Source: Escherichia coli
Lineage (GTDB): Bacteria; Pseudomonadota; Gammaproteobacteria; Enterobacterales; Enterobacteriaceae
NCBI RefSeq assembly: GCF_041886205.1
Contig: NZ_CP169029.1
Direction: 5' to 3' (one strand)
DNA length: 64,000 nt
Under the pieces are notes generated by a model, which was not told the origin of the DNA, searched no databases, and saw nothing but the letters and a program-made list of their open reading frames with translations. Position numbers and translations under genes: made by a program. Positions 1,763 through 59,606 of the stretch are shown in pieces (within the stretch, counting starts at the first letter, position 1; every line of letters starts with the position of its first letter).

Positions 1763-2989
1763 ATGGGAATTAACGAAATCATCATGTACATCATGATGTT
1801 CTTTATGCTGATAGCTGCCGTAGACAGGATCCTGTCGCAGTTCGGCGGTTCTGCTCGTTTCCTCGGTAAGTTCGGTAAAAGTATCGAAGGATCAGGCGGT
1901 CAGTTCGAAGAAGGCTTTATGGCAATGGGCGCTCTGGGTCTGGCGATGGTCGGTATGACCGCGCTGGCACCGGTACTGGCTCACGTACTCGGGCCGGTAA
2001 TTATCCCGGTTTACGAAATGCTCGGCGCAAACCCGTCAATGTTCGCCGGAACGCTGCTGGCGTGCGATATGGGCGGCTTCTTCCTCGCCAAAGAGCTGGC
2101 GGGCGGCGACGTAGCAGCGTGGCTATACTCTGGGTTAATTCTCGGGTCGATGATGGGGCCAACGATTGTGTTTTCCATTCCGGTGGCGCTCGGCATTATC
2201 GAACCTTCTGACCGTCGTTATCTGGCGCTCGGCGTGCTGGCGGGCATTGTGACCATTCCGATTGGCTGTATTGCTGGTGGTCTGGTTGCTATGTACTCCG
2301 GTGTGCAGATCAATGGTCAGCCGGTGGAATTCACCTTTGCGCTGATCCTGATGAACATGATCCCGGTACTTATCGTTGCGGTGCTGGTGGCGCTGGGGCT
2401 GAAATTCATCCCGGAAAAAATGATCAACGGCTTCCAGATCTTCGCCAAATTCCTCGTTGCATTGATCACCCTCGGTCTTGCTGCCGCGGTAGTGAAATTC
2501 CTCCTTGGCTGGGAACTGATCCCCGGTCTGGACCCTATCTTTATGGCTCCTGGCGATAAACCCGGTGAAGTGATGCGCGCCATTGAAGTTATCGGTTCTA
2601 TCTCCTGCGTGCTGTTAGGGGCGTATCCAATGGTGCTGCTGCTGACTCGCTGGTTTGAAAAACCGCTGATGAGCGTCGGTAAACTACTGAATATGAACAA
2701 CATTGCGGCAGCCGGCATGGTGGCAACGCTTGCCAACAACATCCCGATGTTTGGCATGATGAAGCAGATGGATACCCGCGGCAAAGTCATCAACTGCGCC
2801 TTCGCCGTTTCCGCTGCTTTCGCCCTGGGTGACCACTTAGGCTTCGCCGCTGCCAACATGAACGCCATGATCTTCCCGATGATTGTCGGCAAGTTGATCG
2901 GCGGCGTAACGGCGATTGGCGTGGCGATGATGCTGGTGCCAAAAGAAGACGCGACCACGACTAAAACCGAAGCGGAGGCACAATCGTGA
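1763..2989 (+). CDS. eutH: Ethanolamine permease EutH
   Basis: 408-aa hydrophobic multi-pass membrane protein; SD GGAG upstream; synteny. Confidence 0.9.
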   Translation: MGINEIIMYIMMFFMLIAAVDRILSQFGGSARFLGKFGKSIEGSGGQFEEGFMAMGALGLAMVGMTALAPVLAHVLGPVIIPVYEMLGANPSMFAGTLLACDMGGFFLAKELAGGDVAAWLYSGLILGSMMGPTIVFSIPVALGIIEPSDRRYLALGVLAGIVTIPIGCIAGGLVAMYSGVQINGQPVEFTFALILMNMIPVLIVAVLVALGLKFIPEKMINGFQIFAKFLVALITLGLAAAVVKFLLGWELIPGLDPIFMAPGDKPGEVMRAIEVIGSISCVLLGAYPMVLLLTRWFEKPLMSVGKLLNMNNIAAAGMVATLANNIPMFGMMKQMDTRGKVINCAFAVSAAFALGDHLGFAAANMNAMIFPMIVGKLIGGVTAIGVAMMLVPKEDATTTKTEAEAQS

Positions 2990-4389
2990 ACACTCGCCAG
3001 CTATTGAGCGTCGGTATCGATATCGGCACCACCACCACCCAGGTGATTTTCTCCCACCTGGAACTGGTTAACCGTGCGGCGGTGTCGCAGGTGCCGCGCT
3101 ACGAATTCATCAAACGCGAAATTAGCTGGCAAAGCCCGGTGTACTTTACCCCTGTCGATAAACAGGGTGGTTTAAAAGAAGCGGAACTGAAATCGCTGAT
3201 TTTAGAGCAATATCAGGCTGCGGGCATTGCGCCGGAAAGCGTTGATTCTGGTGCCATCATCATCACCGGTGAAAGCGCGAAAACCCGCAATGCTCGCCCG
3301 GCGGTGATGGCGCTCTCTCAATCGCTGGGGGATTTTGTCGTTGCCAGCGCCGGGCCGCACCTCGAATCCGTGATCGCCGGTCACGGAGCCGGGGCACAAA
3401 CCCTTTCTGAACAACGGCTGTGTCGGGTACTGAATATCGACATCGGCGGTGGCACCGCGAACTACGCCCTGTTCGATGCCGGAAAAATCAGCGGCACCGC
3501 CTGCCTCAACGTCGGTGGTCGCCTGCTGGAAACCGACAGCCAGGGGCGCGTGGTTTACGCTCATAAACCGGGGCAGATGATTGTGGATGAGTGCTTCGGT
3601 GCAGGCACTGACGCCCGTTCGCTGACCGGCGCGCAGCTGGTGCAGGTTACCCGGCGGATGGCGGCGCTGATTGTCGAAGTGATTGACGGAACGCTTTCGC
3701 CGCTCGCGCAGGCATTGATGCAAACCGGTTTGCTGCCCGCAGGTGTTACGCCCGAAATCATTACGCTTTCTGGCGGCGTGGGCGAATGTTATCGCCACCA
3801 GCCCGCCGACCCGTTCTGTTTTGCCGATATTGGCCCACTTCTGGCAACGGCGCTGCATGACCATCCGCGCCTGCGTGAGATGAATGTGCAGTTTCCAGCG
3901 CAAACCGTACGCGCCACGGTGATTGGCGCGGGTGCACATACCCTTTCGCTCTCTGGCAGCACAATCTGGCTGGAGGGCGTACAACTGCCGCTGCGCAATT
4001 TGCCGGTGGCGATCCCAATTGATGAAACGGATCTGGTGTGTGCCTGGCAACAGGCGCTGATTCAGCTGGATCTTGATCCTAAAACTGACGCGTACGTGCT
4101 GGCGCTTCCCGCCTCGCTGCCTGTGCGTTACGCCGCGGTACTGACGGTCATCAACGCGCTGGTCGATTTCGTCGCGCGTTTTCCGAATCCGCATCCCCTG
4201 CTGGTGGTGGCCGGGCAGGACTTTGGTAAAGCTCTGGGCATGTTGTTGCGCCCACAGCTACAACAACTCCCGTTGGCAGTCATTGACGAAGTGATTGTCC
4301 GCGCGGGGGACTATATCGACATTGGTACGCCTCTTTTTGGCGGATCGGTTGTGCCGGTGACGGTGAAATCACTCGCATTTCCTTCCTGA
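2986..4389 (+). CDS. eutA: Ethanolamine ammonia-lyase reactivating factor EutA
   Basis: 467 aa; ATGA overlap with eutH stop; synteny. Confidence 0.9.
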   Translation: MNTRQLLSVGIDIGTTTTQVIFSHLELVNRAAVSQVPRYEFIKREISWQSPVYFTPVDKQGGLKEAELKSLILEQYQAAGIAPESVDSGAIIITGESAKTRNARPAVMALSQSLGDFVVASAGPHLESVIAGHGAGAQTLSEQRLCRVLNIDIGGGTANYALFDAGKISGTACLNVGGRLLETDSQGRVVYAHKPGQMIVDECFGAGTDARSLTGAQLVQVTRRMAALIVEVIDGTLSPLAQALMQTGLLPAGVTPEIITLSGGVGECYRHQPADPFCFADIGPLLATALHDHPRLREMNVQFPAQTVRATVIGAGAHTLSLSGSTIWLEGVQLPLRNLPVAIPIDETDLVCAWQQALIQLDLDPKTDAYVLALPASLPVRYAAVLTVINALVDFVARFPNPHPLLVVAGQDFGKALGMLLRPQLQQLPLAVIDEVIVRAGDYIDIGTPLFGGSVVPVTVKSLAFPS

Positions 4390-59133: not shown

Positions 59134-59163
59134 CAAACAGGAGCCTGATGGCTCCTGTTTTTC
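59134..59163. terminator. Bidirectional intrinsic terminator between alaC and ypdK
   Basis: Hairpin ACAGGAGCC-TGAT-GGCTCCTGT followed by T5. Confidence 0.7.
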
Positions 59164-59179: not shown

Positions 59180-59251
59180 TTAGATCATCAGGGCAAAAGT
59201 ACCGGCCCAAACGATGACCATAAAAGAAATGCCCATAAAGAAATATTTCAC
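59180..59251 (-). CDS. ypdK: Small hydrophobic membrane protein YpdK (23 aa)
   Basis: GTG start with GGAGAG SD 7 nt upstream; peptide (M)KYFFMGISFMVIVWAGTFALMI matches YpdK as I recall it; too short for the ORF track. Confidence 0.5.
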   Translation of the reverse strand: MKYFFMGISFMVIVWAGTFALMI

Positions 59252-59606
59252 TTTACATCTCTCCGCGTAATTACTGTTACGCCTGAATGACTTCATTACA
59301 CCTGATACAGTGAGTTGACACCGGGCAAAGCGACCTTAAAAGCCCTGTATTTTACCGTGGGCATCACCCCAGAATTCTGAGCTAAACTGCTCGAGACGGC
59401 GCTAATGTACGCCTAAAACTGAAACGAGACAAGAGGCATTTTCTTATTTACTTTTAGTAACTTACAAGTGTCTCATATCGGCGACAGTTTAATTTCTGAC
59501 GGTAATAATTAGATATTCAGCGAAGGAAAAAACCTTAAGAAAAAAGCCATAAAAACCATGAGGTTATTATGGCCGATTTGAGGAGGGAAAGAGTAAGAGC
59601 AGTTTG

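Follow-up and report, generated by a model that had tools for sequence, protein, structure and literature searches.

The ATG-TAA hexamer beside the GTG start of ypdK in Escherichia coli: probably a lineage-specific by-product within a conserved spacer

The small gene ypdK of Escherichia coli is, on comparative grounds, translated from an invariant GTG codon, and the ATG-TAA hexamer that lies immediately upstream of this codon is probably not a dedicated regulatory element. The ATG is constrained among orthologs and the stop that follows it is not, so that, on this comparative pattern, the start-stop is not conserved as a unit. The hexamer is most likely a lineage-specific by-product within a conserved spacer, and at most a harmless trap for rare mis-initiation or a slight boost to a weak hairpin. 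The analysis establishes the gene identity, its start codon, the geometry of the Shine-Dalgarno (SD) sequence, the pattern of conservation and a hairpin that abuts the SD; that the ATG goes unused, where transcription begins and whether the T at position -4 has an effect are matters of deduction.

Results

Identity and location of ypdK

Read on the minus strand, the site runs TTACGC, GGAG, AG, ATG, TAA, A, GTG, AAA, TAT, TTC, TTT, ATG, GGC, and later ends with ATG, ATC, TAA (Table 1). A preliminary description of the window (the whole 64-kb stretch of E. coli DNA that was analysed) had assigned to this site the peptide VKYFFMGISFMVIVWAGTFALMI, a hydrophobic product of 23 codons named ypdK, and in front of it a start-stop, a kind of element that can modulate downstream initiation. 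The peptide is right by sequence and translation, the ATG-TAA can be read directly between the SD and the GTG, and the interval given for the element, 59180-59258, extends exactly from the ypdK stop through the ATG of the mini-ORF. The name is that of a RefSeq CDS, and the length agrees both with that CDS (72 nt) and with the NCBIfam profile NF033437 (YpdK, equivalog), which is matched over its full length, positions 1-23 of 23, at 57.5 bits against a cut-off of 30 (E = 9.4e-16). In the four E. coli records inspected, RefSeq places this CDS, WP_010723117.1 ('membrane protein YpdK'), at 59180-59251, i.e., with the GTG start, and every inspected record carries it at these coordinates. The hydrophobic, one-helix nature of the peptide was likewise upheld.

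Precomputed annotations assign Pfam PF28022 (YpdK) to the E. albertii orthologs, and a Pfam search with the 23-aa peptide itself gave no match. An 801-nt query around the site matched 5422 of 5426 complete E. coli genomes, and the annotation beneath the match names alaC, ypdK and lpxP; ypdK follows alaC and is encoded on the other strand, and lpxP is the upstream neighbour in Escherichia, as annotated in both E. coli and E. albertii. The full-length profile match, the conserved position and the translated frame all point to membership of the YpdK family. Compared with YpdK as described (NF033437; PF28022), the sequence, the length of 23 codons and the position between alaC and lpxP are identical, and no difference was found: it is the gene itself, already known and annotated. 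Hemm et al. 2008 had it among their 18 small membrane proteins, according to the citing passage in PMC3009722, and the literature that could be searched gives no cellular function for it.

Table 1. Features of the ypdK locus, with positions as in the window.
Feature	Position	Strand	Remarks
ypdK CDS	59180..59251	-	GTG start, 23 codons, TAA stop (59182-59180)
Single-helix peptide (M/V)KYFFMGISFMVIVWAGTFALMI	59180..59251	-	Product of ypdK; from translation
ypdK start codon GTG	59249..59251	-	GTG in 76/76 orthologs
ATG-TAA hexamer	59253..59258	-	In the SD-to-start spacer; ATG 59258-59256, TAA 59255-59253
SD core GGAG	59261..59264	-	9 nt from GTG, 2 nt from ATG; invariant in alignments A2-A4
Predicted weak SD-sequestering hairpin GGAGAGAUGU / AUAUUUCUUU	59237..59264	-	MFE fold; GUG in 8-nt loop
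Conserved hairpin GCGTAA-cagtaa-TTACGC	59265..59282	-	3' arm reaches the base immediately 5' of GGAG
Possible 5' leader hairpin UCUCGAGC-aguuua-GCUCAGA	59376..59396	-	MFE fold of full leader
Inferred ypdK promoter	59404..59432	-	-35 TTGTCT (59432-59427), 17-nt spacer, -10 TACATT (59409-59404), then AGCGCC
A/T-rich tract AAAATTAATAAAAAAAT	59441..59460	-	Upstream of -35; conserved in alignment A4
Hairpin common to convergent alaC and ypdK, AACAGGAGCC-atca-GGCTCCTGTT	59136..59159	.	Follows the ypdK stop; read from sequence

The GTG start codon

Orthologs were collected by a scan anchored on alaC, with one genome per species, which yielded 80 loci from about 30 genera; 77 of these had a ypdK ortholog downstream of alaC, and the counts over 76 given below refer to the non-K-12 orthologs. 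The first codon was GTG in 76/76 and never ATG, and the second was AAA in 74/76. Entropies at codon positions 1, 2 and 3 were 0.49, 0.16 and 1.08 across the 76 orthologs, with the variation mostly at the third position, which is the signature of a translated frame. Klebsiella, Kluyvera and Pseudocitrobacter carry an in-frame TGA two codons 5' of the GTG, so a longer ORF is ruled out in these genera. The distance from GGAG to GTG is 9 nt in 49/77 and 6-10 nt in the others, a variation that breaks any reading frame upstream of the GTG in other genera. Because of the invariant GTG, the codon-position pattern and these upstream stops and indels, the GTG start proposed in the preliminary description can be regarded, on comparative grounds, as secure.

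The same description had held that the gene was missed by the ORF track, which is incorrect in that the mechanical ORF list contains the frame as a 38-aa version, 59180-59296, beginning at an in-frame upstream ATG. That this 38-residue ORF, starting at 59296, is the true product has that listing in its favour and is scarcely conceivable on the comparative data, which led us to discard it: the ATG at 59296 reads ATA in E. coli SCU-108, stops or indels interrupt the upstream frame in other genera, the NCBIfam model spans just the last 22 residues of the ORF, and its start is not preceded by an SD sequence.

Geometry of the Shine-Dalgarno sequence

The SD had been called strong; the computed duplex of its 4-nt GGAG core with the 16S 3' tail, at -6.6 to -7.0 kcal/mol, is better described as moderate. 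Its placement relative to the two candidate starts can be expressed by the DtoStart metric of PMC9841429, which is obtained for UAAGGAGG by adding 8 to the spacer length and has its optimum at about 13-14. At ypdK the DtoStart is 9 for the ATG and 16 for the GTG. In the reporters from which the spacing rule derives, which carried the strong UAAGGAGG SD on another mRNA than ypdK, a competing AUG was unused at DtoStart 10-11 in vitro, in vivo and by toeprint, and was usable from DtoStart 12, while a GUG reached AUG-like activity at DtoStart 14 and beyond, tested to 16 (PMC9841429). By this rule the spacing of the ypdK GTG, at DtoStart 16, is functional and workable, and the GGAG would serve the GTG rather than the ATG, which would sit where a 30S subunit bound to GGAG cannot put a codon in the P site. 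No alternative SD was found 5' of the ATG, the stretch upstream of GGAG being a hairpin.

The hexamer has the literal form of a start-stop; its frame differs from that of the GTG (offset 7), and its TAA ends 1 nt before that codon. A ribosome-binding context for its ATG was not found, given that the sole SD is only 2 nt away (DtoStart 9) and the sequence upstream of it is a hairpin. Start-stop sites have been described inside E. coli genes by Meydan et al. 2019 (bioRxiv 10.1101/520783), who reported 14 of them, e.g., in yecJ and hslR; these two bind ribosomes, and the one in yecJ cuts the output of its host gene by about 16%. The Meydan sites lie within genes, those of yecJ and hslR are drawn with a preceding SD-like sequence, and they are documented by ribosome density and toeprints. 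In contrast, the ypdK hexamer was recognised in the sequence, its ATG is 2 nt past the only SD, between that SD and another start codon, and ATG and stop are not kept together among the orthologs.

Two other systems resemble ypdK in having two candidate starts within one ribosome footprint, a stop adjoining the main GUG and a moderate GGAG core: the GUGUGA start-stop of narQ, where termination-reinitiation occurs (PMC9841429), and a case in S. meliloti, where a closely spaced upstream ribosome-binding site occludes the main one (PMC13285730). In narQ the SD favours the upstream codon (DtoStart 14/16), whereas in ypdK it disfavours it (9/16), so that the adjacency of the stop is shared with narQ and the spacing is not. 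The upstream sites of S. meliloti have an SD of their own, and the ypdK ATG does not.

Conservation of the hexamer

Within E. coli, the start-stop is practically fixed: 5135/5420 records share an identical 40-nt block spanning the ribosome-binding site, and E. albertii has it as well. A single copy of ATGTRA next to a start codon is unremarkable, since 36 copies of this hexamer occur on the two strands of the 64-kb window, and one such copy beside a start is not improbable by itself; by our rough estimate, an ATG-stop would be expected by chance within 15 nt of the start in about 1% of genes.

Among the orthologs with a 9-nt spacer, the three bases of the ATG are strongly preserved (A 47/49, T 47/49, G 46/49; entropy 0.25-0.39), while positions -9, -4 and -3 are free to vary (entropy 1.2-1.5, with 1.2 at -4 and -3). 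The base at -4, in these 49 orthologs, is T in 14, A in 31 and C in 4. The ATG is kept in about 52/57 Enterobacteriaceae orthologs and absent in Erwiniaceae, Mangrovibacter and some others. A TAA or TGA comes straight after it in only 13/76, representing about 4-6 separate lineages: Escherichia, two Pluralibacter-like orthologs, L033, four of the Cedecea type, L056 and four Buttiauxella. In more than 30/76, including Citrobacter, Salmonella, Klebsiella and Enterobacter, the ATG opens an out-of-frame ORF of 25-284 codons, and in 7/76 a spacer shorter by 1 nt brings it in frame with the GTG (ATG-AAC-GTG). One substitution of T for A, or its reversal, is enough to create or abolish the start-stop. 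No stops occur in the +2 frame (that of the ATG) across ypdK in any of the 76 orthologs, because the hydrophobic codons have T at the second position, which leaves the 4 nt before the GTG as the sole place for a stop.

These observations bear on whether the hexamer acts as a decoy, at which ribosomes would initiate on the ATG, terminate at the TAA and either occlude the GTG or reinitiate there. In one form, a 30S or 70S ribosome at the ATG would block the GTG 7 nt away and attenuate ypdK; in another, termination followed by reinitiation at the GTG, 1 nt past the stop, would tune YpdK output. The retention of the ATG in the Enterobacteriaceae, the recurrence of the start-stop in several lineages, the closeness of the stop to the GTG, which suits reinitiation, and the precedents of yecJ, hslR, narQ and S. 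meliloti all speak for such a mechanism. We nonetheless consider it improbable. Its DtoStart of 9 is under the range where AUG initiation was seen, the ATG is without an alternative upstream SD in a stretch taken by the hairpin, and the known examples own a correctly spaced SD-like sequence. Most orthologs are without the stop, and the out-of-frame ORFs that their ATG opens are hard to square with its frequent use; that most lineages tolerate an open ATG argues that it is seldom or never used. The regulatory role that the preliminary description implied for the start-stop was thus not supported, the ATG being too near the SD and the unit present in so few of the orthologs.

Pairing of the spacer ATG

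Another possibility is that the ATG is kept for its part in RNA structure. The predicted fold places the ATG and the T of the TAA in the 5' strand of a hairpin in which GGAGAGAUGU would pair with codons 2-5 (AUAUUUCUUU), so that the SD would be hidden in a weak stem rich in G-U and A-U pairs with the GUG in the loop, and translation of ypdK would be set by it or made conditional, e.g., on temperature, as in a fourU thermometer. This hairpin belongs to the MFE fold whether the short or the full leader is folded (-6.4 kcal/mol), 77% of the cells can pair across 57 orthologs, with the GAUG/UAUU pairs kept in 46-55/57, and the predicted energy for opening the ribosome-binding site falls from 8.1 kcal/mol in the wild type to 5.5 with T(-4)>A and 7.2 with AUG>ACG. 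However, no covariation was seen and there were no double changes, the observed values equalled those of the shuffles, and slid controls reached 46-66%; the 3' strand is coding sequence and conserved on that account, TAC variants of codon 3 are without compensation in the pairing, and the z-score of the region overall is just -1.26. Such a role for the ATG is conceivable, and we would call it rather unlikely.

It might also be supposed that the conserved GAU(G) after GGAG-N extends the pairing with the 16S 3' tail (5'-GAUCACCUCCUUA-3') across a bulge, as a split SD. The duplex computed for GGAGUGAU, the Klebsiella type, reaches -9.8 kcal/mol vs -5.8 to -6.6 for GGAG alone, with smaller gains for the E. 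coli and Citrobacter types. This seems very doubtful to us, as the gain in E. coli is just 0.4 kcal/mol, a bulge or mismatches are required, independent evidence is lacking, and the conserved G of the ATG is not accounted for by pairing of GAU to the GAUC of the 16S tail.

Leader hairpins

The hairpin that abuts the SD was recovered by per-species folds as a helix of 4-7 bp at the same site in most Enterobacteriaceae orthologs, with arms that differ in sequence. Across the alignment 85% of cells are paired, and 46 cells carry double changes vs 18±3.6 in shuffled alignments, a value reached in 0/500 shuffles; slid controls gave 8-62% paired. Compensatory changes of this kind in the ypdK leader show that the hairpin at 59265-59282 is a real structure kept in the RNA across species. 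Its role could be to make the mRNA more stable, to insulate the ribosome-binding site or to provide a stacking partner for the anti-SD helix. Rfam held no relevant family for the ypdK leader, the lone match being a sub-threshold plastid one (E = 0.14) that was taken as chance. An outer helix, TTCAT/ATGAA, around the hairpin and SD was considered and set aside; it is 74% paired with almost no covariation, and just 3 bp of it can form in E. coli.

Further upstream, the possible 5' leader hairpin overlaps a conserved palindrome, CAGAATTCTG (59379-59370). With the pairs specified by hand, its cells are 64% paired vs 57% in shuffles, its stems differ between genera, and RNAalifold predicted no pairs in the 5' part of the leader; support for this hairpin and the palindrome is moderate.

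Promoter and terminator

The columns most conserved upstream of ypdK, in 34 genera, are those of a promoter-like element in which TTG and T,A,A,T,T show no variation. Of the 77 orthologs scanned, 62 have the pattern TTG[TC]-N17-20-TA[C/G/T]ATTA[G/C] upstream. In E. coli, 152 nt separate the -10 element from the GTG, and in two loci (L064 and L071) the element lies just 66-67 nt from the GTG, with the SD-adjacent hairpin retained, a position that identifies it as the ypdK promoter. It is of the sigma70 type, with a predicted transcription start near 59397. A scan for consensus promoters and terminators returned nothing relevant here, as the conserved promoter agrees at 8/12 positions and the threshold was 9. 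The conserved block upstream of ypdK occurs just once in E. coli and does not represent a repeat.

The A/T-rich tract upstream of the -35 resembles an UP element and may act as one. Promoters of the rrnB P1 type have an UP element, a -35 region CTCTTGTC and the GC-rich discriminator GCGCC; with rrnB P1, whose sequence was verified upstream of a 16S gene, the ypdK promoter shares CCTCTTGTC at -35, the A/T-rich upstream tract and GCGCC after the -10, and it differs in its -10 element (TACATT vs TATAAT) and its spacer (17 vs 16 nt). The similarity, as judged from sequence, is a resemblance only.

At the other end of the gene, the hairpin shared with alaC has an A-run before it and a T-run after it, and a block AAAAACAGGAGCC is conserved downstream of ypdK (alignment A2). 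A pattern scan did not list the hairpin at 59136-59159; it is probably a bidirectional terminator.

Discussion

In the explanation that we favour, the ypdK mRNA probably begins about 150 nt upstream of the gene, at the conserved sigma70-type promoter, and would carry the conserved hairpin that ends exactly at the SD. Translation starts at the GTG, positioned by the moderate GGAG 9 nt upstream (DtoStart 16), and the ATG is simply part of a GGAG-NR-ATG spacer conserved in Enterobacteriaceae. In the Escherichia lineage, one substitution of T for A at -4 would have created the TAA, with similar changes in a few others. Such a stop would end rare mis-initiation at once, on what would otherwise be a stop-free, out-of-frame path through ypdK, and the T at -4 would, in the folding model, add one pair to the predicted weak hairpin covering the SD.

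Several points count against this explanation. It gives no reason for the constraint on the ATG in Enterobacteriaceae, the spacing rule was derived with the strong UAAGGAGG SD on another mRNA, and SD-independent or 70S initiation may take place at the ATG. The ATG-stop has also appeared in at least four lineages (Escherichia, Pluralibacter-like, Cedecea/Buttiauxella and L033), which could reflect weak selection rather than drift. It could be speculated that the entire module, hairpin-GGAG-NR-AUG-4 nt-invariant GUG, conserved in Enterobacteriaceae, is a dedicated translational control device for this small membrane protein, in which the spacer AUG is read non-canonically as a decoy or holding codon, at a spacing considered non-permissive, and the start-stop of lineages such as Escherichia leads to immediate release or to reinitiation at the GUG, a proposal to which we would give little credence.

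The start-stop reading itself matters little, given that ypdK is annotated already and that geometry and conservation give it no support. What is newly described is the context: a covarying hairpin that abuts the SD, and a deeply conserved, rrnB P1-like promoter about 150 nt upstream. For a gene of 23 codons, ypdK has an unusually well-conserved expression apparatus, with a start codon that is GTG and never ATG across about 30 genera, the hairpin, the constrained ATG and the promoter. The constrained spacer ATG stands where the ribosome should not see it, and ypdK is therefore a compact natural test case both for how near to an SD an ignored AUG can lie and for the neutralisation of out-of-frame upstream AUGs.

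Probable promoter and leader of ypdK

Upstream of ypdK, on the same strand, lies a deeply conserved region of the sigma70 promoter type, in which an A/T-rich tract is followed by the -35 element CTCTTGTCT, a 17-nt spacer, the -10 element TACATT and the GC-rich sequence AGCGCC. It resembles rrnB P1 in that CCTCTTGTC and GCGCC occur in both, and it was not picked up at this position by a scan for consensus promoters. From the position of the promoter, a leader of about 145–150 nt can be deduced for a gene of only 23 codons.

Features of the ypdK upstream region, in order from lpxP to the ypdK start
Feature	Position	Strand	Sequence or location
Candidate intrinsic terminator	~59540-59573	minus	GCCATAA...TTATGGC, then a T-run; directly after the lpxP stop codon
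Inverted repeat	~59468-59487	minus	consensus GTGTCGCCGAATCACGACAC, E. coli form CTGTCGCCGATATGAGACAC; 5' of the promoter
sigma70-type promoter region	59404-59460	minus	
Palindrome and possible hairpin	59370-59396	minus	(T)CAGAATTCTG(A); UCUCGAGC...GCUCAGA; close to the 5' end of the leader
-10-like block	~59302-59320	minus	CTCTCTATACTCAGT (TATACT or TATAAT); columns ~125-142 of the ortholog alignment (A2)
Hairpin	59265-59282	minus	last base of the 3' arm immediately precedes the Shine-Dalgarno sequence

The hairpin adjoining the Shine-Dalgarno sequence has been retained across the Enterobacteriaceae with many compensatory changes in its arms, and no Rfam family was found for it. Near the other end of the leader the palindrome is conserved, the stems of the possible hairpin vary from genus to genus, and support from covariation is only moderate; this element may be a hairpin in the RNA or else a site at which a protein binds. 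Between the two, some 50 nt 5' of the GTG, lies the -10-like block. Enterobacter, Kosakonia and Salmonella are among those in which it is well conserved; E. coli (CACTGTATCAGG) and E. albertii (CACTGTAGCAGG) have degenerate forms. The block may serve as an additional promoter or as an element of the RNA.

Start-stop hexamer and reading frames

In the window as a whole the motif ATGTRA, an ATG with TAA or TGA directly behind it, is under-represented, with 36 copies on both strands against 58.7±7.5 in dinucleotide-preserving shuffles; all 100 shuffles contained at least 36. The +2 frame, that of the ATG in the spacer, is free of stop codons through ypdK (59180-59251, minus strand) in all 76 orthologs, and the +1 frame is interrupted by a stop in every one of them. 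The open +2 frame probably follows incidentally from the hydrophobic codons, which carry T at the second position. In Candidatus Pantoea haifensis (locus L076) the ypdK frame itself is broken beyond codon 10 (VKYALMGISFSCCFGSAPLC); the gene is a pseudogene there, or the assembly is wrong at this point.

Flanking regions

The intergenic neighbourhood of ypdK has received insertions of mobile elements: two E. albertii genomes carry a Y1 transposase gene (PF01797) between alaC and ypdK (2771-3389 in both alaC-anchored loci, L085 and L087), and in E. coli NCTC9040 (genome match H1) an IS1A element lies inside the matched region. On the lpxP side, the inverted repeat preceding the promoter is conserved in many genera. 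Further upstream, the candidate terminator after lpxP speaks against simple co-transcription of the two genes, lpxP and ypdK.
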